From the IMG/VR virus record IMGVR_UViG_3300035698_008372, positions 32,001-96,000 of that record: a stretch of 64,000 nucleotides of DNA, one strand, 5' to 3'. This DNA is from a virus. Shown here in pieces: positions 31,712 to 64,000 of this stretch (position 1 is the first letter of the stretch; every line of letters starts with the position of its first letter). The translations under genes and the position numbers were made by a program. The notes beneath the pieces were generated by a model. It did no database searches and had not been told where the DNA came from. It worked only from the letters and a program-made list of their open reading frames with translations.

Positions 31712-32570
31712 ATGACTGAAGAACATACAATGTTTGAATTAGCTTCCGATATTAAGGATAAGCTATCAGACGTTATCAACCCCGACGATCTAACTGATGT
31801 TATAGAAGTGGTTAGGCAATCTGAAAATGGTGCATATCATTCTGGGTTGGGGACTGTCACAATTAAAAAGTCACGCAAACGGATTAATGTTTACGTGTCA
31901 TTTACTGGTAATACTGGTTCACGTAGGGACAGCGTGAGTACATCGGTTGACACGATATTGGGTGTCAATGATTCGTTGCATAAGTTGAAATACCATAACG
32001 ATGTAATCAAATATGAAACCAAAGGTCATTGGGATTATTTATACGAAATTGAAATATTGGTAACAAAATAATGGCCAGCGATTTAAAAAATGAAATTGCC
32101 CTCGCTGTTGGTAAAGAAAAAGGTCGAATTCTTCATAGTGATTATGTTAAAGAATTGAACAAAAGGCTGGAATTGATATCAAAGGGGACATTGGCACATA
32201 AGGTGTGGGCAGCTATGTGGATGGATAATAAATTGCGAACCAATATGAAAAAAGATTTGAGCACCGAATATTACGATGGTACAGTGGATATGTGCAATAT
32301 GATTTTAAGAGAATTTGACGAAGTATTTTTAGAAGAGGAATTCGTCACACAAGAGGAAGAATAATGAAATTAAAAGATTTACAGCCATACGATAGTTTGA
32401 CATTTAGAAATAATAGAGTATATTTGACGTATGCCGGTTCTATTTGGGATACGCATAACGAAGATTTTACGTCAAAAAAGAACAGAAAATTTGACATTGT
32501 TAGGGTTGAACGAAACGGGGAAATCCTATTCGAAGATGAGGAATATAAAAGGTTACACAATGTTACTTAG
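31712..32570 (+). other. Three coupled small early ORFs (31712-32071, 32071-32364, 32364-32570)
   Basis: TAATG overlaps after promoter; no recognisable motifs. Confidence 0.6.
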
Positions 32571-44547: not shown

Positions 44548-45645
44548 ATGGTAACTTTTAAATTATCGGATAAATTTATAGATGGGTTCAAGCGCAAGCG
44601 GGCACCCTTCGGTTTCAATGGGTTAGGGGCCCTAGTATATATGAGGACATATTCCAGAATAAAGGAAGATGGTTCAAATGAACAATGGTGGGAAACAGTA
44701 CAGCGTGTAGTTGAAGGTACATATAGCATGCAGAAAAACTGGATAGACGAACAAGGTCTTGGATGGAACCCATGGCAGGCACAGAGGTCTGCACAGGAAA
44801 TGTATGAGCGTATTTTTGAAATGAAATTTCTACCACCCGGACGGGGTCTGTGGGCAATGGGCACTGCTATCACTGAAGAAAAGGGATTGTATGCGGCATT
44901 GAATAACTGTGCATTCGTATCCACCGAAAATTTGAAAGACGATTTGGCCAAACCATTCACGTTTCTAATGGACGCTTCCATGTTGGGAGTCGGTGTTGGA
45001 TTTGATACAAAGGGGGCAGGGCAACTTATTGTCAAAGGCCCTAATGTGGATAGACCACCAGAAAAGTTTGTAATCCCAGATTCCCGTGAGGGTTGGGTTG
45101 ATGCCATGAAATTATTGATCGAGAGCTATTTTCTTGGTACTTCACCTATGGATTATGATTATGATACAATCAGGCCAGAGGGAGCACCAATAAAGGGGTT
45201 CGGCGGCACTTCAAGTGGGTACAAACCACTTAAAGCTGCTATGGATGAAATATCCAAAACACTAGATAAAAATGTTGGGGCACCTATTACAATAACCACA
45301 ATAGTTGATATTATGAATCATATTGGTAAATGTGTGGTGGCCGGAAATGTCAGACGCTGTTTACCAAATCACTATGAAGTTCAAACGGAAAATGGTTTCA
45401 AATGTATGAGTGAACTTACATCGGGAGATATGATAAATACAGCAGGAGGTTTGCGAGAGGTTAATGATGTCATAGATAGCGGAAAACAGAAAGTGTTGAA
45501 AATTAAAACGATGAACAATACTGAATATGAAGCTACTGAAAAACATACATTATTGGTATATAATCAGAAACTAGGCTTTAAGTGGAAAATGGTAAAGGAT
45601 ATTGATTCGGAGTTAGATTTTTTAGTTAAACCCAAAAATAAATAA
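44548..45645 (+). CDS. nrdJ: Class II ribonucleotide reductase part 1 + split intein N-half (from Cys at 45358)
   Basis: RTYSR, PPGRGLW, NNCAF, VAGNVRR|CLP...ATEKH. Confidence 0.9.
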   Translation: MVTFKLSDKFIDGFKRKRAPFGFNGLGALVYMRTYSRIKEDGSNEQWWETVQRVVEGTYSMQKNWIDEQGLGWNPWQAQRSAQEMYERIFEMKFLPPGRGLWAMGTAITEEKGLYAALNNCAFVSTENLKDDLAKPFTFLMDASMLGVGVGFDTKGAGQLIVKGPNVDRPPEKFVIPDSREGWVDAMKLLIESYFLGTSPMDYDYDTIRPEGAPIKGFGGTSSGYKPLKAAMDEISKTLDKNVGAPITITTIVDIMNHIGKCVVAGNVRRCLPNHYEVQTENGFKCMSELTSGDMINTAGGLREVNDVIDSGKQKVLKIKTMNNTEYEATEKHTLLVYNQKLGFKWKMVKDIDSELDFLVKPKNK

Positions 45646-45711
45646 AATATGAAGCGGTTAAGAATAATGGATACCGATTTAAATTAGATGTATATTAATA
45701 GGAGAATGATT

Positions 45712-46458
45712 ATGTATGGGATAGAAGATTTCAATTTGGAAGATTTCAATTTAATTTCGATTATGGAAATAGTCGATGAAAATAAATATGTTCAAACGAT
45801 GGACATAGAGGTTGCGGACAAGCATCATTTCTTTGTACGAAATCCTGAATACTCGGATGAATGTATTGTATCACACAATACAGCCGAAATTGTATTTGGT
45901 GATCCTGAGAATCAGGAATATTTGGACTTAAAGGATTACGACGTGAATCCATATAGGGAAGAATTTGGGTGGACATCGAACAATTCTATATTTGCCGAAT
46001 TGGGCATGGATTATACTGATGCTTGTAAACGTGTTGTGAAAAATGGTGAACCGGGATTTGCATGGCTTGAGAATATGCAGGGTTACTCACGTATGAAGAG
46101 CGGTAAAGACTACAAAGATAGACGTGTAAAAGGTGGAAATCCATGTGTTGTTGGTGATTCAATTATTACTACTGATAGAGGTAGACTTAGAATGGATGAA
46201 TTAGTTGAACGTGTAAATTCAGGTGAAACCATAAAAGTTATGTCTTTTAATGAACAAACATTAACAACTGAATTTAATGTTATTACAAAAGCGTGGATGA
46301 GTAAAAAGGATGCTACTGTATTGACATTGGAAATTGAGGAAAATGACCAAATGTTTAAATTGACATGTACCCCCGACCATAAAATATATACAACTAATCG
46401 AGGATATGTTGAGGCTAATGATTTAACTGGGGAGGATGATATAAAAATAATTACATAA
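45712..46458 (+). CDS. nrdJ: NrdJ part 2: intein-1 C-half + 88-aa extein + intein-2 N-half
   Basis: MDIEV..HHFF..VSHN|TAEIVFG..SNNS..GEPG..GGNP|CVVGDS..TPDH. Confidence 0.9.
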   Translation: MYGIEDFNLEDFNLISIMEIVDENKYVQTMDIEVADKHHFFVRNPEYSDECIVSHNTAEIVFGDPENQEYLDLKDYDVNPYREEFGWTSNNSIFAELGMDYTDACKRVVKNGEPGFAWLENMQGYSRMKSGKDYKDRRVKGGNPCVVGDSIITTDRGRLRMDELVERVNSGETIKVMSFNEQTLTTEFNVITKAWMSKKDATVLTLEIEENDQMFKLTCTPDHKIYTTNRGYVEANDLTGEDDIKIIT

Positions 46459-46526
46459 TTCGTTTGTATATGGTATTTATTTTTGATATTTATAATAAAG
46501 AAACACTCTATATAAAGGAATGAACT

Positions 46527-47582
46527 GTGAAAACATATTGTGAAAAAAAGAACGGAAAAATTAAATTTGGAGATACTAATCATATTAGTTACGTGGGTCA
46601 CTATACAAACAATAACAATAAAACATATTATTTGCGTAGCAAGATTGAATTCGTGGTGGCTAGATGATTAGATATAAAAAATCTTAAATTTTTATATGAA
46701 TGCAAAATATATATAATAAATTCAAAAAATTATAAACCCGATTTTTTCCACACTGTAAATGATAAAATCAGAACTATTATAGAAGTAAAACCAGATAAAC
46801 AAACGGCTCTGGAATATTATTCTAAATATAACGAGTATTTTAAGAATATAGGAATTCGGTATGTAGTTTTATGAGAAAAACACATACATCAATTAATACG
46901 TAAAAATAATTTACAAGATGAGGTACTAAATTGAATAGACTATAGCATCACGAATTATAAAGTTCCCGATATGAGAGGGAAAAATAATCCTAGATATGGA
47001 ATGAAAACATCAGCAACTACTAAAAAGAAGATAGGTGATAAGACCAGAGAAAGATGTAAGGATAATGAGTATATTGATAAATTGAGTACCTCTATTTCTA
47101 AGTTCTATAATACGGACATGGGACTAAAACGAAGAAATGAAATTTCAGAGTTAAGAAAACGTGAAAACGTAGAATTCTGGAAACGGAAAAATCATGATGA
47201 CCCACTTACTACTGCTATATGTAAAATATGTGGTGATTTATTTAGATATAGAGGTATTAGTGAAAGTGGTCGTGTAACTTGTAGAAAAAATGGATGTACT
47301 ACAAAATATAATAATAGTATTGGAATTCCTCGAAAACCATTATCTAAAAAATCAAGTATTAGCTCATATAAAACAAGACTGTTAAACGGTGGTAATAAAA
47401 TGAAATTAACTGAAAACTATAAAGATTGAAACGAGAAAATTAACATGTTAAAGAAAACGTATAATATTCCAATGACGTTTGGTATGAATGAAAATACCAT
47501 TGTCAAATATTTTGGAAATATAAACACCTATATAAAGGAGATAAAAAAATATGGGAAAACTAATAAGAACGATTTTACATAA
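46527..47582 (+). mobile_element. Free-standing endonuclease (TnsA-like PD-(D/E)XK + NUMOD3-like) with four in-frame TGA
   Basis: LRSKIE, YKPDFF, IEVKP, GKNNPRYG; TGA at 46665, 46872, 46932, 47427. Confidence 0.75.
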
Positions 47583-48767
47583 AACTGTGGAGGATGTATT
47601 CGATTTAACCGTCGATGCTGTCCATAATTTTATAGCCAATGGTATATTGGTACATAACTGCCTTAACTACTAAGTCTCGGGGCAGTATAAATTTCTCCTG
47701 ATTGACTTGGAAGGTGAGTATACACCGACAGGGCGCAAGGGTAAAGCCAGCGTGAGAGACTGAGCGGAGAAACTTCAAAATGAAGATGCGACAGTCCACC
47801 TTATGAATCGAAACTTCTGATACGATTTGTAAACAGCGAACAAAGTTTAGAATCCTATGAATTGTGTTGTCTAGTTGAAACATTTCCAGACAATCATACG
47901 AGCAAAGAAGATTATTTGCGAACATTGAAATATGCTTATCTTTATGCAAAGACAGTGACACTTGGAAAAACTCATTGGCCAGACACAAATAGGGTTATGC
48001 TGAGAAATCGTAGAATTGGTACATCGGTATCTGGTATTGCCCAATTCATTACCAATCGAGGTCTGGGTGTACTCAGGGATTGGTTGGAAAGTGGGTACGA
48101 TGAGATTAAGAAATGGGATGAGATGTATTCAGATTGGTTATGTATTCAGCCCAGTATAAAAATTACAAGTGTGAAACCTAGTGGGACAGTATCACTACTG
48201 GCCGGATCAACTCCAGGATTACATTATCCAGAGAGTAGGTTCTACATCAGGCGTGTACGACTGGCAAAAAGTAGTAAACTGATTACACCACTTGAAAACG
48301 CTGGATACAAAATAGAACCGGCTTATGGTTCTGAAGAAAGCACAGTTGTGGTGGAAATTCCCATTGATGAGGGTGATGGAATTAGGACAAAGAAGGACTT
48401 AACGATGTGGGAACAATTGGCCCTTGCGGCGTTTATGCAACGGCATTGGGCTGACAATGCTGTTAGTGCCACGATCACGTTTGATCCGGAAACCGAATCG
48501 GATCAACTCCCATTCGCTTTGAACTATTTTCAGTATCAATTAAAAGGCATTTCATTTCTACCTAGAGTGGAAAAGGGGGCCTATAGACAAATGCCGTATG
48601 AGGAAATCACTGAAAGTGAATATGATAATATGAAAACTAATCTAAAATATTTGAGTTTAATTCACATTGAAGGGGAAATGGCAAACCCAGAAAAATATTG
48701 TGGGAATGATACGTGTGAAATTGATGCCGAGTGGGCACAAGTTGAAGATGAACAGGATGAAAAATAA
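47551..48767 (+). CDS. nrdJ: NrdJ part 3: intein-2 C-half + catalytic Cys, interrupted by group I intron (exons 47551-47663, 47837-48767)
   Basis: VFDLTV..HNFIANGILVHN|CL/EQSLESYELCCLVE; RRIG; VKPSGTVS; C-terminal CxxxxC. Confidence 0.88.
47664..47836 (+). ncRNA. Group I intron (173 nt, no ORF)
   Basis: IGS GGGCAGT pairs with 5' exon ACTGCCT (U.G at splice site); TCG pairs with 3' exon CGA; P7 GAGACTG/CAGTCC; ends in G; splicing restores frame. Confidence 0.85.
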
Positions 48768-49770: not shown

Positions 49771-49816
49771 TTGAAAATAAATCGTGTCTTTGGGAAATAA
49801 AACACTATTTATATAC

Positions 49817-49889
49817 GCGGTTGAGGTGTAAGGGGATTTGCATGTCGGCTTTCCAGCCGGAGGAGTTGGTTCAAAACCTTCCAACCGCT
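49817..49889 (+). tRNA. Non-canonical tRNA-Gly-like gene (TCC; 6-nt anticodon loop, mismatched T stem)
   Basis: GCGGTTG/CAACCGC acceptor, U73, cloverleaf. Confidence 0.65.
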
Positions 49890-49900
49890 CTATTACAAAT

Positions 49901-49973
49901 GCGATTGAGGTGTTCAAGGGGAGCACGTCGGTATTCCATATCGAAGGAGTGGGTTCGAATCCTGCCGATCGCT
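49901..49973 (+). tRNA. Non-canonical tRNA-Gly(TCC)
   Basis: GCGATTG/CGATCGC, U73, loop ATTCCAT, TTCGAAT T-loop, A8. Confidence 0.8.
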
Positions 49974-49984
49974 CTATTAAAAAT

Positions 49985-50057
49985 GCGATTGAAGTGTAAC
50001 AGGTAAGCACGCCGACATACCATGTCGGAAGAGTGGGTTCGAGTCCTACTGATCGCT
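49985..50057 (+). tRNA. Non-canonical tRNA-Gly(ACC)
   Basis: GCGATTG/TGATCGC, U73, loop ATACCAT, TTCGAGT T-loop, A8. Confidence 0.75.
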
Positions 50058-50084
50058 CTATTAATGCAAGGAAAAAAATGTTAT

Positions 50085-51242
50085 ATGAACTTCTCAAGTA
50101 AATTTTTCGATATCAAACCATTTGATATAGAAGAAGAAAAACAAAATCTAATCAATAATTTGGACTTTTTACATTCTATGACAGTGGAAGAACAAACCCT
50201 GTATAAGAAATGGCAGGAGTTCAATAAGAACGAACATAAGATCAGGGGGAAAGCCCACCTGTTTGATGTGTTTGAAAAAAGGTTATGGGCACCAACCGAT
50301 ATCTATGATGAGGATTTAACCATTAAGGAAATTAATGCGTTGGAGCCAGTTGTAGAATATGCAGGAAGCGATGAAGCTGCTGATTGGTCATTGTATAGGA
50401 TGTTAATTCACACAATGGATTGGTCTGCGAACCCCGGTAGAAATATGAAATTCTATGTAAAGGATGCTGTCACTCGTAAGGTGTTGGGTCTAATATCAAT
50501 GGGTTCAGATGTTACCAGTATCAAGGTCAGAGATGATTATATTGGTTGGAAAAAAGAAGATAAATTTGTAAATCACAAGTTGAATAATACGGCTATAGCC
50601 AGCACAATTGTGTCGGTTCAACCATTGGGTTATAACATGCTTGGTGGAAAATTGATAGCCGCGTTGGCAACAGTGTCAACAATTAGGGACAAGTGGGAAA
50701 AGGAATATGGTGATGTTCTAGCTGGGGTTACAACCACTTCATTATATGGCATCCATTCACAATATAACGGAATTCCACATTGGAAAACGATGGGTGAATC
50801 TGCTGGCAAGATTAGGATCAAGCCAGATGATAGTGAATATTTGAAATGGAATAAGTGGCTCAAAGAGAATTATCCAGATGAGTTTGAAAAAGCCATTACT
50901 GGAACGGGTCCCAAACAGAATGTATTAAGCAAGGTATTCAGCCATTTGAAAATTAGAGGTTATGAGCATGGATTTCATAGAGGTGTCTATTTTGCGTCAA
51001 TCTATGATAATACAGTGCCATTCTTAAAGGGTGAAATTGAACAATCTGAGCTCAAAATGAAACTGAAATATGAACAGGATTATGAATATATCGACAGGTG
51101 GTGGAAAAAGAAAGCCATAAGACGATATCAGAACATGATTGCACAGGATAGGATTAAACCAGAGAAATTATTCTATGGTGATATCGTGGGTGTATCTTGG
51201 GAAGAATGCCAAGAAATGTATTTAAAAGAAGTGGGGAGATAA
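50085..51242 (+). CDS. DUF4338/DruA-like protein (probable GNAT/Mom-related fold)
   Basis: NPGRNMKF, QPLGYNMLGGKLIA, TTTSLYG..SQYN motifs. Confidence 0.65.
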   Translation: MNFSSKFFDIKPFDIEEEKQNLINNLDFLHSMTVEEQTLYKKWQEFNKNEHKIRGKAHLFDVFEKRLWAPTDIYDEDLTIKEINALEPVVEYAGSDEAADWSLYRMLIHTMDWSANPGRNMKFYVKDAVTRKVLGLISMGSDVTSIKVRDDYIGWKKEDKFVNHKLNNTAIASTIVSVQPLGYNMLGGKLIAALATVSTIRDKWEKEYGDVLAGVTTTSLYGIHSQYNGIPHWKTMGESAGKIRIKPDDSEYLKWNKWLKENYPDEFEKAITGTGPKQNVLSKVFSHLKIRGYEHGFHRGVYFASIYDNTVPFLKGEIEQSELKMKLKYEQDYEYIDRWWKKKAIRRYQNMIAQDRIKPEKLFYGDIVGVSWEECQEMYLKEVGR

Positions 51243-51415
51243 TGAGTAAAACACTAGTTGAGAAGATCGAAGAATTGGGTACTGATTGGAGCAAGGTGAA
51301 TACCGCTTTGCATCACTTATGGTCAAAAAATGTCGGAACTGATAATTATGACAAAGAAGAATGGAAATTGTTAGAAAAATATATATATAAAATTATATTG
51401 AAAGACAGGGGATAA
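51242..51415 (+). CDS. Small hypothetical protein
   Basis: Coupled ORF. Confidence 0.55.
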   Translation: MSKTLVEKIEELGTDWSKVNTALHHLWSKNVGTDNYDKEEWKLLEKYIYKIILKDRG

Positions 51416-51419
51416 GCTT

Positions 51420-53180
51420 ATTTATAAGTCAATTTATTTCGAAGCGGAAAAACAGAAGATTCATTTGTGGGATGATGACCGCGGCTATTTCACAATACCA
51501 TATAGACGTTATGGGTATATAAAAGATAGGGGCGGCACATATACTTCATTATATGGGGACAGGCTTAAGAAAATCCACAAGTGGGGCAAAGATTCCACTG
51601 GATTATTTGAGAGTGATGTACACCCTGAAACAAGAACATTAATTGATCTGTACACCAATGACGATGAACCATCAAAAGGTAACAAAACGATTATTATTGA
51701 TATTGAAGTCGAGGTCACAGATGGATTCCCAACTGCTACTTTGGCCGAGAATAAGGTTACGGCTATATCAATTTACGATTTTACGGATAAGAAATATTAT
51801 GGTTTGGTATTGGAAAATGGCAAGGGTATTATCAAGCCATCCACAACTCCAGAGCTTGACATTGAAGTGTTTGATATGGAAGTTGATTTGTTGAATAGAT
51901 TCATGCAGATATACCTACGCATAAAACCAACTATTATTACTGGTTGGAATGTGGATAGATTTGATGTAACATACCTATACAATAGAATGGCCGATCAGCT
52001 GGATGAAGATGTAGCCAATTGCTTGTCTCCAATCGGTGTGGTACATTGGAGTGATTTCAGGGGTAGCTACAGAATCGCTGGGGTTGCAACAATGGATTAC
52101 TTACAGTTGTATAAGAAATTTACATTTACGCAACAGGCTTCATACAGATTGGATGCGATTGCTGATTTCGAATTGGGTGAACGCAAAATTGAATATGATG
52201 GTACACTAAACGAATTATATGAAAATGACATTGAAAAATTTGTCCAATACAACATCCATGATGTTCGACTAATTGAGATGTTGGACAAGAAATTGAATTT
52301 TATAGAAATCGCTCGTGGTATTTGTCACTTGGGGCATGTTCCGTATGAAGATATTTACTATGACAGTAGATACCTAGAGGCTGCTATTCTTGTTTATCTG
52401 AAAAAATTGAACATCATCGCTCCGAATAAGCCCGAGCGTGAGGGTTGGAAGGATGAAATTGGCTTTGAGGGTGCTCACGTTCAAAAGCCCAAGAAGGGTC
52501 GTCATAATTGGGTATATGATTTGGATTTAACATCAATGTATCCAAGCATCATTATGTCGTTGAACATTTCTCCAGAGACAAAAATAGGTAAAATAGATGG
52601 GTGGGATTCCAATAAATTTGTGAAAAAAACCCCAAAAACCTATACTGTCAAATATGGTACAACCGCACTCCAATCCATGGATCAGGATGAACTACAGGTA
52701 TTTTTTGATACCAATCATGTGTCGGTATCGGCCAATGGGATATTGTACAAAACTGATAGGGATGGCCTAATCGCGTCACTCCTGAAAAAGTGGTTCGACG
52801 AACGTGTTGAATTCAGAAAATTGGCTAAGAAGTTTGCCGACGCGGGTGATAACGAGAAATATGATTATTTCAATAGACGACAACATATCCAGAAGATTCT
52901 CCTTAACTCACTTTTTGGGGCACTCGGTTTGCAGGGTTGGAGATTCCATGACGTAGACAACGCCCTTGCAGTTACATCGACGGGGGTAGAATTAATTCGA
53001 TTTTCCAAAACCATTGCAAACCATTATTACAATACTGAGCTTGGTAAAGAAATTGAACTTGAAATGGAAGATGGGTCTATCAGAAAATTATATGAAAATT
53101 GGCCAATCCATGTAAAAAGGGGTGGTAAAAAAGTTCAAATTTTAGCCAAAAATCTCAAAATAAATGATGATATTCTCTAA
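51420..53180 (+). CDS. Family B DNA polymerase, N-terminal subunit (probable ATT start), ending in a partial Hint-like tail
   Basis: Exo DIEVE, GWN..FD, YNIHD; DLTSMYPS; KILLNSLFG. Confidence 0.9.
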   Translation: MYKSIYFEAEKQKIHLWDDDRGYFTIPYRRYGYIKDRGGTYTSLYGDRLKKIHKWGKDSTGLFESDVHPETRTLIDLYTNDDEPSKGNKTIIIDIEVEVTDGFPTATLAENKVTAISIYDFTDKKYYGLVLENGKGIIKPSTTPELDIEVFDMEVDLLNRFMQIYLRIKPTIITGWNVDRFDVTYLYNRMADQLDEDVANCLSPIGVVHWSDFRGSYRIAGVATMDYLQLYKKFTFTQQASYRLDAIADFELGERKIEYDGTLNELYENDIEKFVQYNIHDVRLIEMLDKKLNFIEIARGICHLGHVPYEDIYYDSRYLEAAILVYLKKLNIIAPNKPEREGWKDEIGFEGAHVQKPKKGRHNWVYDLDLTSMYPSIIMSLNISPETKIGKIDGWDSNKFVKKTPKTYTVKYGTTALQSMDQDELQVFFDTNHVSVSANGILYKTDRDGLIASLLKKWFDERVEFRKLAKKFADAGDNEKYDYFNRRQHIQKILLNSLFGALGLQGWRFHDVDNALAVTSTGVELIRFSKTIANHYYNTELGKEIELEMEDGSIRKLYENWPIHVKRGGKKVQILAKNLKINDDIL

Positions 53181-53242
53181 GTTTATACTATTTATATACA
53201 GACACAATGTATCAATGTATAAAATATAAATTGGAGAGTAAG

Positions 53243-54082
53243 ATGAAAAAGGGGTCAGCGAGAACATTACAATATTGATTGGATAAAGGGTATAAAGGGG
53301 AAGAAGCAGAAAAAATGCGTATGAGCAGAATTCCAGGTACTATAGAATATTTTACTATATTTAAGGGGCTCCCATTGAATGAGGCCGAAATTGCGAAAGA
53401 AAATTATAACAAAAGGTCCGTTCCGACATTGGAAAATATGATACGCAAGTATGGGGAAACTGAAGGTGAAATTAGGTGGGGTGCATATCGTGAAAAACAG
53501 GCAAAATCCAATACATTTGAATATAAGCGTGATAAGTATGGTTGGACATTGGAACAATTCGATGCTTATAACAAATCAAGGGGATTGTCTGGTAAAGACA
53601 ATGGCAATTATGGGTCGAGCTATTATGAAGCTTGGGTTAAAAAGTATGGAAAAATAAAGGCCGATGAAATGAATAATGCTTTAGGTGAATTGAAAGCCAA
53701 AGGGGGGAAATCTCAAAAAGGTGTACCCAAATCATTTGTGGCTAGAAAAAATATGAGTATAGCTGCAAAGAAAAGGATAATGGATCAGGGTACTTACATT
53801 TCATATAATCCAAATTCAATTCCGATAATTGAAAAATATGGAAAAGAAAATGGATATAAATTTCAACATGCTGAAAATGGCGGCGAATATTTGGTTAGGG
53901 AAGTTTACTATTGGGTAGATGGGTATGATCATGAAAATAATGTGGTGGTTGAATATGATGAAAAATACCATGAAATGCAAACGGAAAAAGATAAAATTAG
54001 GCAACAACATATAATGGATGTGTTGGGGTGCAAATTTATAAGAATTAAAGAATCTGGAGAAATTAAGATTTATGAAAATTAA
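53243..54082 (+). mobile_element. Free-standing homing endonuclease between PolB halves; in-frame TGA at 53276
   Basis: QY[W]LDKGY; KYG repeats; QHAENGGEY..YWVDGYD..VEYDE. Confidence 0.8.
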
Positions 54083-54993
54083 AAATATAAGGGAATCAAA
54101 AGGTGTCGATGTGGATCATGTTATCTACATCGACACGTAGTGCGGATTCACTATTTATTTCGTCAACCGCGATGGTGAGCAAACGATATGGAAACAAGAA
54201 ATTCAGTGATGTCATGCTGTCACAGTACATCTTGACAATAGCTGGTGACACCCAAAAATTCATAAATAACTCGTATGACTATTTTGCCAAGAAATTCTGT
54301 AATCTTCCCGGTGCACACCGGTTTGAGATTAAACAGGAATTGATTGCAAAGTCAGCTGTATTTGTCAATGCTAAGAAAAATTATGGGTTGCGTGTTATCA
54401 ATGACAATGGTGTGAAAGTGGATAAAAATGTGTACAAAGGCTTGGCCGTAGTTCGCAGTGATTTCCCACAATCATACAGAAAATTGTTAGGTGAGGTGCT
54501 AGGTGATGTTCTAGCGGATGTTCCAAAAGATAAGATCGACGATCGTATTATTGAATACAAAAACAACATGAGATACTTGAATGTCGAAGATATCGCCAAA
54601 CCAACTGGGGTTAAGAATATCAAAAAATATTTGGTTCCACCTGGAGCGGGTGGGGGATTTTCTACTTGGAAGTCTCGTTGTCCTATCCATGTCAAATCAT
54701 CTATCATATACAATGATTTGATTAAGCATTTTGACAAACAAAAGAAGTACGCATTGATAGGGGCCGGCGACAAGGTCAAATGGGTGTACTTAAAGAAAAA
54801 TAATTTAGGATTAGAAAGTGTGGCTTATACAGGTCACGAAGACCCAAAGGAAATTATGGATTTCATATATAATTTTGTGGATAGGGATAAGATGTACGAT
54901 AGTATATTTTTGAACAAAATCACATCAATATATTCTGCCATGGACTGGTCGTTGCCCATAGATAAAAAGTTCTCGATGGACAGATTTTTTTAA
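54072..54993 (+). CDS. PolB C-terminal subunit; YIDT/DSLF motif interrupted by 7 nt (54138-54144)
   Basis: GGAG SD at 54056; YIDT*...DSLF; KKNY, KGL, C-terminal clamp-type MDRFF. Confidence 0.8.
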
Positions 54994-55044
54994 TCGTTTG
55001 GGCACATTAATGTATATGTATATATAAAGAAACAAGGAGTTACA

Positions 55045-55764
55045 ATGGAAAAAGGAAAATTAGTACGGTTTATTCAAAAATATCATTTGAATGGCAACGT
55101 ACAATCGGTTTCAATGAATAGTGACGGTGAGACGTTAAAGGCGGAGTTTGTAACTTCGGACAGAGGGTTGCTCGGAACTATTAAAATGAAGAATTGGGGA
55201 TTTGAAAAATCCAAAATTGGTATCTTGGATACTGAGAAGTTCTTAAAATTATTGGCAGTATTGGATAATGATGTTAAATTGTCATTGTTAAAAGCTGGCG
55301 ATACGGCAATCACATTAAAGGTCGCGGACAATAGTTCTACAGTCAATCTGATGTTATCAGACTTGTCGGTAATTCCAGCTGTACCGCCTTTGAAGTATGT
55401 GCCGCCAATGAATCTCAAGTTGAACTTGGATTCAAATTTCATTAAGAAGTTTATCGCTGGTAAGGGTGCTCTATCCGATGTGGATAATTTCACAGTGGTC
55501 ACAGATAACGATTCTGTTAATTTGGTGATCGGTTATGCATCAATTAATACGGACAGGGTTATTGTTCCAGTTGATACTGAAGTATTCGAAAAGATTGACA
55601 AGGTATCATTCAACGCAAATATCTTCAAAGATATCCTGCAATGTAACCGTGAATGTAAAAGTGGAGTAATGGAAATCAGCTCAGAGGGTCTTTCAAAACT
55701 GACCTTTAATGTTGATGACTATGAAGTTGTGTATTTCTTAGCCGCATCTGAAAACGTAGGATAA
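55045..55764 (+). CDS. Sliding clamp (gp45-like)
   Basis: Size, beta-rich pattern, position between polymerase and clamp loader. Confidence 0.75.
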   Translation: MEKGKLVRFIQKYHLNGNVQSVSMNSDGETLKAEFVTSDRGLLGTIKMKNWGFEKSKIGILDTEKFLKLLAVLDNDVKLSLLKAGDTAITLKVADNSSTVNLMLSDLSVIPAVPPLKYVPPMNLKLNLDSNFIKKFIAGKGALSDVDNFTVVTDNDSVNLVIGYASINTDRVIVPVDTEVFEKIDKVSFNANIFKDILQCNRECKSGVMEISSEGLSKLTFNVDDYEVVYFLAASENVG

Positions 55765-55770
55765 ACAACA

Positions 55771-56697
55771 ATGGTTAGAAAAACATCTCATTCGATATGG
55801 TGTGAATTATATCGACCAACATCAATGGAAACATTCGTAGGAAATGATCATCTCAAGGATAAAATTGATATGTACATTGAAACCAATGATCCGCCCCACC
55901 TGTTATTTCATGGTAAGGCGGGCACTGGTAAAACTACATTGGCCAAGGTCATACATAATAGTATAGACTGTGACCACTTGTACATCAATGCTTCAGACAA
56001 AGGTGGTGTGGATTACATTAGGACTGATATCATTCCATTTGCCAGTAGTGTTGGATTTAGGGAGTTGAAATTGGTTATCCTCGATGAGGCCGACTTTTTG
56101 ACTCCACAATTCCAAGCATCACTACGCAACGCTATGGAAACGTACGCGATGAATACTCGGTTCATATTGACTTGCAATTACCCCGAACGGATAATCGAAC
56201 CAATACAGAGCCGGTGCCAAATGTTTGAAGTTTATCCTCCAAGCAAAAAGGAAATCGCCGTACATGTCAGTGCAATATTGGCAAAAGAGGGTGTGAACCA
56301 TACCGCGAGTGACATCGGATTGATTGTCAATAGTAAATATCCAGACATTAGAAGTATTATCAATACATTGCAGAAACAATCAATTAATGGTGAGCTGAGA
56401 TTGGACAAGCGTTCGGTTGTGGAAAGTGACTATAAATTGAAGATATTGGATGTACTGAAAAAGCAGGATAAGAAAAACTCATTTGCTAGTATTAGACAAA
56501 TGGTGGCGGACAATTCAATCAGAGATTTCGCTGAGATTTATTCAATGTTATTTTCTGAGGTGGATGATTACGCTAAGGGTCATATCGCTCAAACGATATT
56601 GATTCTGGCCAGATACCAATTGAGTGATTCTCAAAGTGTCGATAAAGAAATAAATTTTATGGCATGCGTAATAGAATTGTTAGATTGTATTAAGTAA
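55771..56697 (+). CDS. Clamp loader ATPase (gp44/RFC-like)
   Basis: YRP, GKAGTGKT, INASD, LDEAD, SRC, DIRS. Confidence 0.95.
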   Translation: MVRKTSHSIWCELYRPTSMETFVGNDHLKDKIDMYIETNDPPHLLFHGKAGTGKTTLAKVIHNSIDCDHLYINASDKGGVDYIRTDIIPFASSVGFRELKLVILDEADFLTPQFQASLRNAMETYAMNTRFILTCNYPERIIEPIQSRCQMFEVYPPSKKEIAVHVSAILAKEGVNHTASDIGLIVNSKYPDIRSIINTLQKQSINGELRLDKRSVVESDYKLKILDVLKKQDKKNSFASIRQMVADNSIRDFAEIYSMLFSEVDDYAKGHIAQTILILARYQLSDSQSVDKEINFMACVIELLDCIK

Positions 56698-57501
56698 ATG
56701 GAAGAACAATTTGTAGACACGTCGAGGGTAGAACTTAGGATTATTACTACCGCTATAGCAAAAAGGATGATTGTAAAATACCATTACAGTCACGCATGGC
56801 CCGCATCAACTCAAGCTCCATTAGGGGTATTCTATAAGACAGGCAAGAAACATAAGTTTCTTGATGAGGATGATGAAAAATTGATTGGTTGTATTGTCTA
56901 TGGCAATCCAGTTGGTCGTAGAGCGGCCGCATCTATAGTGGATAGTGATGAGATTAACGCTCATGAAAGTGTTTATGAATTGACAAGGTTATTCATCCAT
57001 GATGGATACGGCAAGAATATTGAGAGTTATGTTATAGGTCAATCGTTCAAATGGTTGAAAGAGAATAGGCCTAAAATCAAAATGTTGATCAGTTATGCCG
57101 ACCCAGCACAGGGTCATGTTGGAGGAATCTATAAGGCCACCAACTGGGGATACCAAAGTGCGGATGATATGAAGTTGATGTTCAATTACCCAATTTCATT
57201 AACAAACGATCCTTATGATTGGATTCATAGCCGTACTGTATTTTCAAGGTACGGAGTGACTCCATATCCAACGGATGATGCAGTAGCCAAAATGAAGAAA
57301 GCGGTGGGCCAGACATTCTGGATGAAACGAGAATGTGTGAAGCATCGCTATATTCAATTCTTAGTGGACAAGAGGGAAAAACGGAAATTGATAAAATTGC
57401 TGAAGCACCCATTTCGAGACTATCCTACAACGGCCGACGACGATAGTGAAATTATTGAAGTGATAGTTGACGGGAGTGGAAAATTTGGGAAGTTCATGTA
57501 A
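56698..57501 (+). CDS. Mom-like GNAT DNA-modification protein, paralogue 1
   Basis: HYSH, LIGCIVYG, ELTRL, KNIES, ISYADPAQGHVGGIYKATNW. Confidence 0.8.
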   Translation: MEEQFVDTSRVELRIITTAIAKRMIVKYHYSHAWPASTQAPLGVFYKTGKKHKFLDEDDEKLIGCIVYGNPVGRRAAASIVDSDEINAHESVYELTRLFIHDGYGKNIESYVIGQSFKWLKENRPKIKMLISYADPAQGHVGGIYKATNWGYQSADDMKLMFNYPISLTNDPYDWIHSRTVFSRYGVTPYPTDDAVAKMKKAVGQTFWMKRECVKHRYIQFLVDKREKRKLIKLLKHPFRDYPTTADDDSEIIEVIVDGSGKFGKFM

Positions 57502-58268
57502 TGGAGAAATATACAGACATATCTAGAGTAAGTGTTCGACCAATAGATCGGACTACTGCTAAAGGTATCATTGAAAAATACCATTATAGTCATTTGATTC
57601 CAGCTACTTTACAGCTGTCATTGGGTGTATTTTATGAATCTGATGACACAGGTAAATTTTTTGATGACAATGAAAAATTGATAGGGTGCATAATGTATGG
57701 GCATCCATCTGGCAGAATGGTAGTGGATTCCATAACCGAAGGTGATTTGCTCGATCGGGAAAATATAATGGAACTTTTGAGGTTGTTTATCCATGATGGT
57801 TATGGCAAGAATATTGAGAGTTATGTAATCGGACAATCGTTCAAATGGCTCAAAATCAACAGACCAAAAGTAAAGGTGTTAATCAGCTTTTCCGACCCAG
57901 CAGAAGGTCATTTGGGTATCATATACCAATCGACCAACTGGTTGTTTCAAATGATTCCATCATCTGGTAAGTGGCAATTTTCAATGGAAAAAAACCCGTA
58001 TCATTGGGTACACCCCAGAACAATATTTGGAAGATATGGATTTTGTGGTGTGGAAGATATGAAAAAGTCATTTGATAAGAACTTCTATGCCAAGCGCCTG
58101 ACAAACAAATTTCGATATTTGTACATACTGACCAATAAATCGGAAGCTAGGAAAATCAAGAAAAATCTAATCCACGAACTACTGCCATACCCAAAGTCAA
58201 TTGATTATATGGAAGAAATAGTGGAAGTCGAAGTGAGCGGAAATTCGAAGCTCGGAAAGTTCATATAA
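57501..58268 (+). CDS. Mom-like GNAT protein, paralogue 2
   Basis: Same motifs; ISFSDPAEGHLGIIYQSTNW. Confidence 0.8.
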   Translation: MEKYTDISRVSVRPIDRTTAKGIIEKYHYSHLIPATLQLSLGVFYESDDTGKFFDDNEKLIGCIMYGHPSGRMVVDSITEGDLLDRENIMELLRLFIHDGYGKNIESYVIGQSFKWLKINRPKVKVLISFSDPAEGHLGIIYQSTNWLFQMIPSSGKWQFSMEKNPYHWVHPRTIFGRYGFCGVEDMKKSFDKNFYAKRLTNKFRYLYILTNKSEARKIKKNLIHELLPYPKSIDYMEEIVEVEVSGNSKLGKFI

Positions 58269-59035
58269 TGGAAAAATATACGGATACTTCTAGGGTCACT
58301 ATAAGGCCGATAGACAAAAAGACTGGTATTAATATGATTAAAAAATACCATTACACTCACAAAGCACCTGGTACTACTCAGGATGTGTTGGGTGTGTTTT
58401 ATAAGGGTGAAGAAGCCAACAAGTTTTTCGATGATGATGAAGTATTGATCGGGTGCATGTTATATGGTCATCCAGTTGGTAGGTGGACAATAAAATCCAT
58501 TATCGAAGATGAAAATATCAAATCCTATAATGTGTATGAATTACTGAGGTTATTTGTACACGATGGGTATGGCAAGAATATCGAAAGCTTTGTCATAGGT
58601 CAATCATTTAAGTGGCTGAAAGAGAACCGACCAGAGGTGAAAATATTGGTGAGTTATGCCGATCCTGAAGCCGGTCATGTGGGCATCATATACCAATCAA
58701 CTAACTGGATGTTCCAGATTCCAGAACCAGGTGGAGCAATGATGACTTCACTAACCAAAGACCCGTATGTATGGGTTCACCCAAGGTCAATGCACGCAAA
58801 GTTTGGTGCTTGTGGGGTGGATGGTCTCAAAGAGGCATTGGACAAACCATTCTACATGAAAAAATCACCTCCAAAATTTAGATATGTATATCTATTGACG
58901 GACAAAAGGGAGAGCAAGATATTGAAATCGAAATTCGTATATCAACAATCTCCATATCCAAAAGAGCACGATTATGTTGAAAAAGTTATTGAAATGGTGC
59001 CCAATGAAGAGAAAAAATTTAGTAAATTTATTTAA
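58268..59035 (+). CDS. Mom-like GNAT protein, paralogue 3
   Basis: Same motifs; VSYADPEAGHVGIIYQSTNW. Confidence 0.8.
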   Translation: MEKYTDTSRVTIRPIDKKTGINMIKKYHYTHKAPGTTQDVLGVFYKGEEANKFFDDDEVLIGCMLYGHPVGRWTIKSIIEDENIKSYNVYELLRLFVHDGYGKNIESFVIGQSFKWLKENRPEVKILVSYADPEAGHVGIIYQSTNWMFQIPEPGGAMMTSLTKDPYVWVHPRSMHAKFGACGVDGLKEALDKPFYMKKSPPKFRYVYLLTDKRESKILKSKFVYQQSPYPKEHDYVEKVIEMVPNEEKKFSKFI

Positions 59036-59067: not shown

Positions 59068-59331
59068 ATGAGTCAATTAAATCCAAGAAAACCATTACCA
59101 AAATCACCACCAAAACTAGACCTAGCGAAGGCAGAAACCATCGTATGTGAACAAGAGGGGTGTGGTAATATGTTATTTCTTCAGTCATTCGTGATGAAAA
59201 GAGTATCGGCCATTTTGAGCCCAAGCGGTAAAGAAGAATTACTACAAATTCCAGTTATGAGTTGCGGAGCATGTGGTGGGGTCAATAAGGAATTCATGGC
59301 CGCATTCGGAGAACCCGACAGCGATGGTTAA
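59068..59331 (+). CDS. Small Zn-ribbon protein
   Basis: CxxxxC...CxxC. Confidence 0.7.
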   Translation: MSQLNPRKPLPKSPPKLDLAKAETIVCEQEGCGNMLFLQSFVMKRVSAILSPSGKEELLQIPVMSCGACGGVNKEFMAAFGEPDSDG

Positions 59332-59773
59332 TACCAAGATCAAAAAGGCCAAAACCTTATTTGAACATGTAAACCATGTCAATGAAAAACAAACCAAAAA
59401 TTACTGGGAAACCTTATCTGAAGCCGATAAGAAAAATTGGTCCAATTATATGATCCACAGGTTTTTGTCGATGGAACCAGCATTTATTGAGATAGTGAAT
59501 GAGGTTCAAAAATATAATCTCACTCCGGATATGGTGTATAAATTCTACATAGATGTTCTGCCAAAGGGTAAGCGGTGGTTGAAATATGTAAAAAAAACGG
59601 CCAAACAGAAATTCGAGAGTGGATTGGTGGAATTGTTTGCAAAGCATTTTGAGGCTAGTATTCTTGAATCGACTGAATACATTGAATTATTGAGCCGATC
59701 TGAAATTGAAGAGATTTTGGACAAATATGGTCTGGATGCAAAAACAAAACGAAAATATCTGAAAGGAATTTAG
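59324..59773 (+). CDS. Clamp loader small subunit-like (gp62-like)
   Basis: LFEH..YMIHRFLSM..LPKGKRWLKY. Confidence 0.65.
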   Translation: MVNTKIKKAKTLFEHVNHVNEKQTKNYWETLSEADKKNWSNYMIHRFLSMEPAFIEIVNEVQKYNLTPDMVYKFYIDVLPKGKRWLKYVKKTAKQKFESGLVELFAKHFEASILESTEYIELLSRSEIEEILDKYGLDAKTKRKYLKGI

Positions 59774-62552: not shown

Positions 62553-64000
62553 ATGGCTGACAAAGTTATAAAGAATTGAAATGTCGGAGACATAAGAAAC
62601 GGGACAGAGGTTTTAGCACCAGAACAGAGAAAAACACTATTAATATTATCGGATGATCTGAGAATGTCGTCTGGGGTAGGGACAATGACTAGAGAAATAA
62701 CTATGGGTATTTGCCATAGATTTAATATCGTTCAAGTTGGTGGAGCTATAAACCATCCAGATAAAAATAAAGTGATTGATTTAAATCAAAGCTTTCAAGA
62801 CGGAACGGGTGTCCCAGAGGCACATTGCAAGGTGTATCCAGTTGATGGATATGGAAATTCGGATGTCGTTAGACAAATAATGAATACTGACAAACCCGAT
62901 GCCATACTACACTTCACAGACCCTAGATTTTGGGGTTGGTTGTATCAAATGGAACATGAGATTCGTCAGAATATTCCAATTTTTTACTACGCTTTGTGGG
63001 ATGATTTGCCAGTACCAATGTACAATAAAAGATTTTATGAATCATGTGACTTGATTATGTCAATTTCAAAACAATCACATTACATCCATAGATCGGCATT
63101 AATGGAAACTGACACCAAAATAATTGACATGACCATAAATGAGGTACTAAATGAATATCCAGACGGAAACAATATGGAGACCAGAGTTAGTTATGTTCCG
63201 CATGGTATCAATGAAAATGAATTCTATCCCATAGAAGAGGGTCATCCGGAATGGGATGATATGAGGAAATTTAGGAGTGAAGTCACTACAGGGACTCTTG
63301 GAAATATCGAATTTATATTCCTATACAATAGTAGAAATATTAGAAGAAAAATGACAACCGATTTGATATATGCATTTAAAGTATTTTGTGACGCTCTGCC
63401 CCAAGGTGAAGCCGACAAATGCTTATTGTTATTACATACACAGCCGGTTGACGAAAACGGAACGGATTTGCCAGCTGTAATCAGTGAATTGGTCGATAAC
63501 TATAATATCGTTTTTTCACATCAAAAATTAGATACTAAGCACATGAACTACCTATATAATATATCGGATGTCACTGCACTAATTTCTTCAAATGAAGGAT
63601 TTGGATTGGGCACAGCTGAATCATTAATGGCGGGTACTCCAATTCTGGTTAATACCACTGGAGGACTTCAAGATCAAGTTGGGTTCAAAAGAGAAGATGG
63701 TGAATATGTCGGAGTAGAAGATTATAGAGATGGTTGGGGTTCCAATCATGATGGTCGATATACTGAGCACGCGGAATGGTGTAAACCAGTCTGGCCTGTT
63801 AGTAGGGCTATAGTGGGTTCGGTTCCAACTCCATATATTGCAGACGACCGATGTGATTGGCAAGATGTGGCAATCAGAATGTTGGAATGGTATGGCACAC
63901 CAATAGACGACCGCAAAGCTTCTGGGAAGTCTGGTCGTGAGTGGTTACTTTCAGAAAAGACGGGGATGTCTGCTTCAGAAATGGCTCGACGATTTGTGGT
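62553..64000 (+). CDS. GT4-family glycosyltransferase (runs off window); in-frame TGA at 62577
   Basis: GGAGG SD; LSDDLRMSSGV, TDPRFW, SRNIRRK, SNEGFGL..ES. Confidence 0.85.

Follow-up and report, generated by a model that had tools for sequence, protein, structure and literature searches.

Introduction

The Mom protein of phage Mu was only recently established as an enzyme that uses a charged transfer RNA (tRNA). It transfers the glycyl group of Gly-tRNAGly to the N6 position of adenine in double-stranded DNA, and the reaction was reconstituted from tRNAGly, glycine, glycyl-tRNA synthetase (GlyRS) and ATP (Silva et al., Nat Commun 2026, PMC13219725; preprint 2023). Gly-tRNAAla was not accepted, and the Mom residues R111 and S124 were found to be essential (PMC13219725). 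In that study Mom was seen to draw on a host resource that is readily available, and was suggested to read mainly the acceptor end of the tRNA; phage-encoded tRNAGly is not mentioned in its discussion (PMC13219725). Within the limits of the literature searched, we found no publication linking phage-encoded tRNAGly with Mom. Here we describe a stretch of 64,000 nucleotides (nt) of viral DNA (positions 32,001 to 96,000 of the IMG/VR record IMGVR_UViG_3300035698_008372), referred to as the window, which contains three tandem tRNA-Gly-like genes next to a gene for a DUF4338/DruA-family protein, followed by three genes for Mom paralogues. Our comparative evidence, which consists throughout of anatomy, conservation pattern and genomic linkage, suggests that the tRNA-Gly-like genes probably encode phage glycyl carriers that mainly feed DNA-modifying GNATs (the three Moms, and probably the DruA-like protein) and do not mainly serve translation.

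The three Moms of the window belong to the same family as Mu Mom (PF25680), keep the equivalents of R111 and S124, and are predicted to use the same co-substrate, glycyl-tRNAGly. The expected product is likewise N6-carbamoylmethyl-adenine, which would protect the DNA from restriction. Mu has one Mom and no tRNA gene and relies on the host tRNAGly, whereas the phage described here has three Moms, a DUF4338 GNAT and three tRNA-Gly-like genes.

A cellular system provides a second comparison. Staphylococcus aureus has non-proteogenic tRNAGly isoacceptors, charged by the normal GlyRS, that serve FmhB, FemA and FemB; the weak pairs A49-U65, U50-A64 and A51-U63 in their T stem lower the affinity for elongation factor Tu (EF-Tu), and the lineage is reported to be restricted to staphylococci (PMC7826273). 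Both systems have extra tRNAGly genes with weak T stems and altered D/T regions, and a proposed supply of glycine to a GNAT-fold transferase (Fem in staphylococci) off the ribosome. One set of relatives of the window locus, the second marine group described below, even shares U50-A64 and A51-U63. However, the staphylococcal system is cellular and its acceptor is a peptidoglycan precursor, while the system here is viral with DNA as the proposed acceptor. The RNAs here also have A8, mismatches at 50-64 and 51-63, and 6-nt loops, and their relatives have lost the D arm; the window copies have G49-C65 instead of A49-U65. The likeness is therefore best read as an analogy of functional logic, not as descent.

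Phage tRNAs that supplement codons or escape host defences are, like the genes here, found in lytic phages, and copies 2 and 3 of the window match abundant phage codons. In contrast to such tRNAs, the genes here represent one amino acid, are solitary and are linked to genes of aminoacyl-tRNA-dependent enzymes, and one copy and many relatives lack decoding features. The gene after the tRNAs resembles DruA of the type I Druantia system in family (PF14236) and GNAT fold. Whereas type I Druantia is defined by DruB-DruE neighbours in a bacterial genome, this gene lies in a phage replication module without other Druantia genes, among those for dUTPase, a split family-B DNA polymerase, the clamp loader and Mom. 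Plant RNA viruses carry 3′ tRNA-like structures that can be aminoacylated. In a Mom clade of actinophage type, the mom frame has at its 3′ end a CCA-encoding element that resembles these structures, but this element belongs to DNA phages, has glycine identity and is tied to a glycyl-tRNA-consuming enzyme; this arrangement is absent from the window.

Results

Anatomy of the tRNA-Gly-like genes

The window is part of a linear viral record of 140,003 base pairs that is 71% complete by CheckV. Apart from the three tRNA-Gly-like genes the record contains no tRNAs, and glycine is the sole amino acid represented. These genes and the gene that follows them are:

49817..49889, + strand: tRNA-Gly-like gene 1; 6-nt anticodon loop UUUCCA, U50.U64, U51.U63, A8, U73, no encoded CCA
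49901..49973, + strand: tRNA-Gly(UCC) gene 2; A8/U14, U50.G64, G51.U63, 7-nt loop AUUCCAU
49985..50057, + strand: tRNA-Gly(ACC) gene 3; A8, G51.U63, 7-nt loop AUACCAU
50079..51242, + strand: DUF4338/DruA-family GNAT-fold protein, 387 amino acids; PF14236; AAGGA ribosome-binding site

The exact 84-nt period proposed in an initial annotation of the window was confirmed by reading the starts (49817, 49901 and 49985) and by Tandem Repeats Finder (period 84, 2.4 copies, 80% matches). ARAGORN identified copy 2 as tRNA-Gly(UCC) and copy 3 as tRNA-Gly(ACC). With the Rfam tRNA model (RF00005), copy 3 scored 47.1 bits and copy 1 scored 31.9 bits with one anticodon-loop position deleted, whereas copy 2 scored 23.8 bits, under the gathering threshold of 29 bits. 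Cloverleaf covariation in 17 homologues (see below) also places the copies in the tRNA family. In minimum-free-energy folds copies 2 and 3 form the cloverleaf, and the anticodon loop of copy 1 closes to 4 nt.

The identity set of bacterial GlyRS consists of G1-C72, C2-G71, G3-C70, U73, C35 and C36. Direct reading found all of these in each of the three copies, together with A8, as initially annotated; glycylation is thus predicted for all three. A canonical elongator tRNA has U8, a 7-nt anticodon loop with U33 and a purine at 37, a Watson-Crick T stem, G18G19 and T54-Psi55-C56. The window copies depart from this in A8 (all three), in the loop and U.U pairs (copy 1), in U.G and G.U pairs (copy 2) and in a G.U pair (copy 3). 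Their T stems start with G49-C65, followed by U.U, U.G, G.U or U-A at the next two pairs, and CTA stands in place of an encoded CCA after each 3′ end; these T-stem and 3′-end features had been annotated correctly. Copies 2 and 3 satisfy the loop, G18G19 and T-loop features, which makes the comparison with elongators a mixed one. An A32-U38 or U32-A38 pair is normal in tRNA-Gly, as in the E. coli and T4 tRNA-Gly loops. The A32-U38 closure had been taken as a sign of a role outside translation, and this part of the annotation does not hold, while the 6-nt loop of copy 1 and the ACC anticodon of copy 3 do. Among the glycine codons of the phage, GGU makes up 40%, GGA 29% and GGG 18% (GGA and GGG together 47%). 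It is very unlikely that copy 1 decodes; translation and modification could both be served by copies 2 and 3. The effect of the T-stem pairs on EF-Tu affinity was judged by qualitative comparison.

The DruA-like gene directly follows the tRNAs, as annotated. Its ribosome-binding site supports a start at 50079, about 20 nt past copy 3, instead of the 27 nt originally given.

Linkage to DruA-like genes

We collected 80 related DruA-like loci (51-90% identity) from viral contigs. In 20 of them a tRNA-Gly lies 25-75 nt 5′ of the DruA-like gene on the same strand, 19 with UCC and one with ACC. A8 is found in all 20, in contrast to U8 in the Ala, Cys, Glu and Tyr tRNAs of these phages. An alignment of 17 homologues has 97.9% of its cells paired and 13 pairs with compensatory changes, a level reached by none of 500 shuffles. 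The covariance model R1, built from this alignment, gives copies 1, 2 and 3 of the window 65.3, 76.1 and 76.2 bits. When the DruA-like loci were scanned with R1, the family was found just 5′ of the DruA-like gene and at no other position.

When 58 distinct DruA-like proteins were placed in a tree, the tRNA-bearing state fell in three separate places; it occurs in at least two distinct genomic neighbourhoods with unrelated neighbours. The order is dUTPase, tRNAs, DruA-like gene and polymerase in the lineage of the window, and peptide deformylase, HAD phosphatase, tRNA, DruA-like gene and glycosyltransferase in the second marine group. A 19-mer of this group has 18 exact matches in 2.9 million IMG/VR viral contigs, and all 17 that could be evaluated lie just 5′ of a DruA-like gene. 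In this group (L047 9950-10000 and relatives), a small conserved hairpin (GGCC-loop-GGCU) stands between the tRNA-Gly and the first codon of the DruA-like gene, and L066 shows a compensatory change in it.

Three close relatives of the window locus (L001-L003) have two tRNA-Gly copies, the first of which is the counterpart of copy 1. In L001 this counterpart keeps the 6-nt loop and the U.U pairs, and its pairs 5-68 and 29-41 have changed in a compensatory way. Copy 1 has thus been maintained as an RNA and is not a decaying pseudogene. Two other phages (the contig of L055, and G004) carry a canonical, T4-like U8 tRNA-Gly(UCC) elsewhere in addition to the linked A8 tRNA-Gly(UCC), so the linked gene is redundant for decoding there.

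A fixed ratio of one tRNA per Mom paralogue was considered and rejected: the window has three of each and a close relative two of each, but distant relatives have one linked tRNA with two or three Moms. Cultured pelagiphages and cyanophages with DUF4338 have no adjacent tRNA-Gly. The Pelagibacter phage HTVC008M has an unannotated tRNA-Gly(ACC)-like gene (KC465899 91140-91210; L162:8944-9017) about 4 kb 3′ of its DUF4338 gene, with U8, an aberrant T loop and no G18G19.

Elements at the 3′ end of mom genes

A separate set of 80 loci, at 41-47% identity to the Mom of locus L193, contains 58 distinct Moms. In 30 of the 58, R1 found a tRNA-Gly-like element on the strand of Mom, beginning 0-20 nt past the point where Mom homology ends, and 21 of the 23 Moms negative with the model showed an element on inspection. 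ARAGORN detects few of these elements, and genome annotations miss most of them. In the L193- and L201-type Mom clades that were scanned, no other tRNA type adjoins Mom.

The Mom-linked elements (39 distinct homologues) separate into a fixed and a variable part. Pairs 1-72, 2-71 and 3-70, U73 and C35C36 are nearly invariant, while pairs 4-7 and the remaining stems covary freely (255 double-change cells; score 0.78 versus 0.16 when shuffled). Position 34 can be U, C or A. Loss of U33 and of purine 37 is frequent, two members have 6-nt loops, and many elements are only 65-67 nt long and have no D arm. The T loop deviates from the UUCGA consensus, a G50.A64 mismatch is common, and CCA is often encoded. 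Such a pattern fits what would be expected of an RNA that is charged by GlyRS and serves an enzyme reading the acceptor end, with no need for the ribosome.

In members of the L193 clade (L273-L352), the Mom frame runs from the conserved YPK end through the element, and the stop codon follows just after it. The 3′ end of the mom mRNA thus holds a dual-coding tRNA-like structure in these phages.

The linkage extends to cultured and complete genomes. The Arthrobacter phage BarretLemon (NC_031252) has an unannotated element at 45950-46020 that overlaps the end of its Mom gene and scores 60.6 bits with R1. In the Microbacterium phage Appa, an annotated tRNA-Gly(CCC) lies 33 nt past Mom on the opposite strand, and in the Salinibacter phage B2_17 an annotated tRNA-Gly immediately follows a Mom-like gene. 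A complete genome of 54.9 kb (G021) has a Mom-adjacent tRNA-Gly as its sole tRNA. No tRNA-like element was found at mom of Mu, where the protein ends exactly at YPK, or at Mom of the Enterococcus phage phiEf11.

Lone A8 tRNA-Gly genes in unrelated phages

We scanned the 2.9 million viral contigs with a motif combining GCG at 1-3, G7, A8, R9, the beginning of the D stem, a D loop with GG, U33, CCA at 35-37 and a T arm reading GGTTCRA. The 37 loci found comprise 21 marine DruA-linked loci, eight within arrays of 8-41 tRNAs, seven beside Mom and one that is truncated where its locus ends. Every lone A8 tRNA-Gly from the scan adjoins a DruA-like or Mom gene. The seven beside Mom come from contigs with GC contents of 29%, 34%, 58%, 63%, 70% and 73% (L201/L202, L204, L193, L196, L197 and L195), and in L204 the tRNA-Gly sits amid three Mom genes. 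In two marine relatives of 131 kb (G017 and G018), an A8 tRNA-Gly lies 32 nt 5′ of Mom, with the DruA-like gene at a distance of more than 20 kb. The check put forward in the initial annotation, whether such tRNAs co-occur with Mom or DUF4338 genes, is thus positive well past the window lineage. A8 as a specific marker of Mom linkage was ruled out by its presence in the large arrays of phages without Mom.

The three Mom paralogues

The tRNA copies are 6.6 kb from three intact Mom genes:

56698..57501, + strand: Mom paralogue 1, 267 amino acids; PF25680, 3.9e-43
57501..58268, + strand: Mom paralogue 2, 255 amino acids; PF25680, 1.9e-42
58268..59035, + strand: Mom paralogue 3, 255 amino acids; PF25680, 4.7e-41

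Their PF25680 scores of 141-148 bits are far over the cut-off of 27.1 and place them in the Mom family. They stand between clamp-loader genes, in agreement with their annotation as Mom-like GNATs in the same replication block as the tRNAs. Equivalents of R111 and S124 are kept in all three (paralogue 1 was aligned to Mu Mom, 8bv8), and the ELxRLF and NIES motifs that hold them are invariant across the paralogues. A tRNA-dependent activity is predicted from the family and these catalytic residues; the use of Gly-tRNAGly by Mom, on which the initial annotation built, is established for the Mu enzyme (PMC13219725). The three proteins are about 50% identical to one another (about 53% for paralogues 1 and 2), and the duplication is therefore old.

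The DruA-like protein

The product of the gene after the tRNAs matches PF14236 (DruA/DUF4338) at 2.8e-22 and 79.7 bits (cut-off 27), and also matches PHROG 19197. The literature on DruA function is little informative beyond the description of DUF4338 as a GNAT domain (PMC10853773). An AlphaFold2 model with a predicted local distance difference test score of 87 has the GNAT fold, with GNAT matches at Z 8-9.4. Mu Mom (8bv8) is its top match in the PDB (Foldseek E 5.6e-4; VIA Z 9.4, root-mean-square deviation 4.2), and the 185 aligned residues are the longest stretch among the structural matches. Generic acetyltransferases rank within one Z unit of Mom. The DruA-like protein may work like Mom. 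Remote homology to Mom at the sequence level was tried and found unsupported by hhalign and by a Pfam search, which returned no Mom match at E up to 10; the protein is not filed as a Mom.

Genomic positions also bring the two families together. In T4-like cyanophages a DUF4338 gene occupies the gp44-gp62 clamp-loader slot, which is the slot of the three Moms in the window. The Synechococcus phages S-SSM7 (GU071098 147240-148382) and S-SCSM2R have DUF4338 between gp44 and gp62 in this way, and one record gives the name 'methylcarbamoylase mom'. Mom is directly 5′ of the DruA-like gene in L080 (1-1927), and DruA-family genes were present in all five large Mom-bearing marine contigs checked. One genome of 93% completeness (G007) has a DruA-like gene and no Mom; the pairing is therefore not obligatory. 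L023 (10001-12236) has two DruA-like paralogues in tandem.

Discussion

Combining the conservation data with the biochemistry of Mu Mom suggests how the locus could work. The RNAs would be transcribed together with the DruA-like gene or just before it, then processed, and a host enzyme would add CCA. Charging by the host GlyRS is expected because the acceptor identity set (G1-C72, C2-G71, G3-C70 and U73) and C35/C36 are intact. As described for Mu, the Mom-type enzymes would then move the glycyl group to N6 of adenine in double-stranded DNA, and a rearrangement would yield N6-carbamoylmethyl-adenine and block restriction. A8, the U.U and G.U pairs at 50-64 and 51-63, and the loop of copy 1 may divert part of the pool from EF-Tu and the ribosome. 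The DruA-like protein would probably act as another DNA modifier that uses glycyl-tRNA. A role outside the ribosome is supported indirectly, since the oddities of copy 1 are conserved, a U8 tRNA-Gly(UCC) makes the linked gene redundant in some phages, and Mom-linked relatives have lost decoding features while keeping the GlyRS set. The proposal of private glycyl carriers hidden from the ribosome, made in the initial annotation, thus gains support from linkage and conservation, with the qualification that copies 2 and 3 could still decode.

A wider reading takes the DruA-linked genes and the Mom-linked elements together. Many Mom phages would carry their own non-decoding glycyl carrier RNA, in forms spanning near-canonical tRNA-Gly, RNAs with 6-nt loops, and CCA-encoding elements without a D arm in the 3′ end of mom. 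In the phage described here the arrangement would be expanded to three carriers, three Moms that possibly differ in sequence or donor preference, and a DUF4338 GNAT as a second aminoacyl-tRNA-dependent enzyme. This joint reading is plausible and still slightly doubtful, and we put it forward tentatively.

A number of observations weigh against a carrier role. No tRNA-Gly was found with R1 in 10 kb around 78 other marine Mom loci, and the majority of DruA-like genes have no linked tRNA-Gly; the RNA is therefore dispensable and an accessory, and Mom and DruA-like genes without it presumably use the host tRNAGly. In the window the tRNAs adjoin the DruA-like gene rather than the Moms. For that protein, generic GNATs tie with Mom as structural matches (Z 8.5-9.2), and its hhalign alignment with Mom has a non-significant probability of 1.6%. 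Kinship within clades means that locus counts overstate independent events. The approximate independent units are the three DruA-linked branches, G017/G018, L204, and the actinophage-type Mom clade together with Appa and B2_17. Furthermore, the 7-nt loops of copies 2 and 3 are normal and their anticodons fit the glycine codons that the phage uses most, tRNA-Gly(UCC) is common in T4-like marine phages (cyanophages and pelagiphages), and A8 tRNA-Gly is also part of large tRNA arrays in Mom-free phages, two of which are represented by complete genomes. A relative (G010; L187 3657-3887) has a cluster of tRNA-Cys, -Ala and -Pro, with tRNA-Glu nearby, directly 5′ of two Moms, and non-Gly tRNAs cluster near the DruA-like gene in two others (L012 and L045). 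The tRNA regions and these GNAT genes may share a variable region.

Several of these points are what would be expected if the copies were ordinary phage tRNAs supplementing glycine codons (UCC for GGA and GGG, ACC for GGU), with copy 1 a decaying duplicate and the closeness to GNAT genes due to a shared variable region. The codon match, the cloverleaf folds of copies 2 and 3, the A8 genes in arrays, the frequent marine tRNA-Gly(UCC) and the non-Gly clusters near GNAT genes keep this explanation in play, but we consider it unlikely. Glycine is the sole amino acid represented in 140 kb, copy 1 is maintained with compensatory changes and hence is not in decay, and two genomes hold a canonical tRNA-Gly(UCC) that makes the A8 gene superfluous for decoding. 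All lone A8 tRNA-Gly genes found adjoin Mom or DruA-like genes over a GC range of 29-73%, and Mom-linked relatives without U33, R37 or the D arm would be unable to decode normally. A defensive role would assign the RNAs to the protection of translation, as toxin-resistant replacements or decoys for host tRNA-Gly attacked by toxSAS enzymes or GNAT toxins. Such attacks are described in the literature: toxSAS toxins pyrophosphorylate the 3′ end of tRNAGly, FaRel2, which has been implicated in antiphage immunity, picks tRNAGly via the acceptor stem (bioRxiv 10.1101/2024.07.05.602228), acetylation of Gly-tRNAGly by GNAT toxins is cited in PMC13219725, and phage tRNAs rescue tRNA-targeting defences, e.g. 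Retron-Eco7 and tRNATyr (PMC12673091). The unusual tRNA bodies would also suit this role. Nevertheless, the acceptor stem read by the toxin is the most conserved part and stays host-like, a replacement must decode and many linked relatives cannot, and the role would leave unexplained why these RNAs are so tightly linked to Mom and DruA-like genes, with some elements even inside the Mom frame. We regard a counter-defence function as quite improbable.

The RNAs could instead be cis-acting tRNA-like elements, providing signals for RNase P/Z processing, stability or sensing of charging that control the GNAT mRNA without being donors. In favour of this, Mom is described as toxic and tightly regulated in Mu (PMC3378877), and the elements are on the same strand within tens of nt of the GNAT gene. 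In one Mom clade the element is inside the 3′ end of the frame, where excision would remove the stop codon, and in the second marine group a conserved hairpin follows the tRNA. A pure processing signal, however, does not need C35, C36, U73 and the first three acceptor pairs, which together are the GlyRS identity set. Three tandem copies would be superfluous for processing, and the tRNA-Gly of Appa is on the strand opposite to Mom. Cis control is the least probable of the alternatives considered, and it is compatible with a donor role. Neither it nor counter-defence excludes the proposed supply of glycyl groups to DNA-modifying GNATs; both are less likely than that supply.

If glycyl supply to DNA modification is the main role, viral tRNA genes would gain a new function, and the system would be a viral parallel to the cell-wall tRNAs of staphylococci. 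It would account for 'orphan' single tRNA-Gly genes and for unannotated tRNA-like elements in phage genomes, and would provide the first testable lead on the function of DUF4338/DruA, including DruA of Druantia. The conservation pattern separates the parts of tRNAGly needed by GlyRS and Mom from those needed only by the ribosome. Direct testing is feasible since the linkage exists in cultured phages, i.e. the Arthrobacter BarretLemon/Martha group, the Microbacterium Appa group and Salinibacter B2_17.

Gene neighbourhood and other features of the window

Genes for dUTPase and an intein-split class II ribonucleotide reductase lie 5′ of the tRNAs in the window. The DruA-like gene is followed on its 3′ side by the split family-B DNA polymerase, the clamp-loader large subunit, the three tandem Mom genes and the clamp-loader A subunit:

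51465-53180: family-B DNA polymerase, N-terminal piece
54103-54993: family-B DNA polymerase, C-terminal piece (PHROG DNA polymerase, positions 580-844)
55771-56697 and 59273-59773: clamp-loader genes flanking the Moms

An open reading frame between the polymerase pieces (53279-54082) has a weak match to a DUF559 endonuclease. The class II (B12-dependent) ribonucleotide reductase (44548-48767) is broken by intein-like (Hint) segments and an open reading frame resembling a NUMOD3 homing endonuclease. A scan for promoters and terminators around the tRNA genes gave no signal exceeding chance. All 24 public runs containing DNA of this phage are DNA metagenomes from salt lakes, with no RNA run among them.

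In-frame TGA codons are numerous in genes of the window (e.g. 40560 and 53276) and in the whole record (G000). At these sites aligned relatives have Trp or aromatic residues, or TGA too, and almost never Gly. TGA is probably read as Trp in this phage, as judged from these alignments; the 140-kb record has no suppressor tRNA. Recoding of UGA as glycine (genetic code 25) was considered and ruled out by the Trp and aromatic residues in relatives and by the three anticodons, which are unable to read UGA.

A GT4/GT1-type glycosyltransferase gene recurs a few kb 3′ of the DruA-like gene in different lineages (62664-63998 in the window, 12484-13821 in L047), and may be a member of the same modification module.

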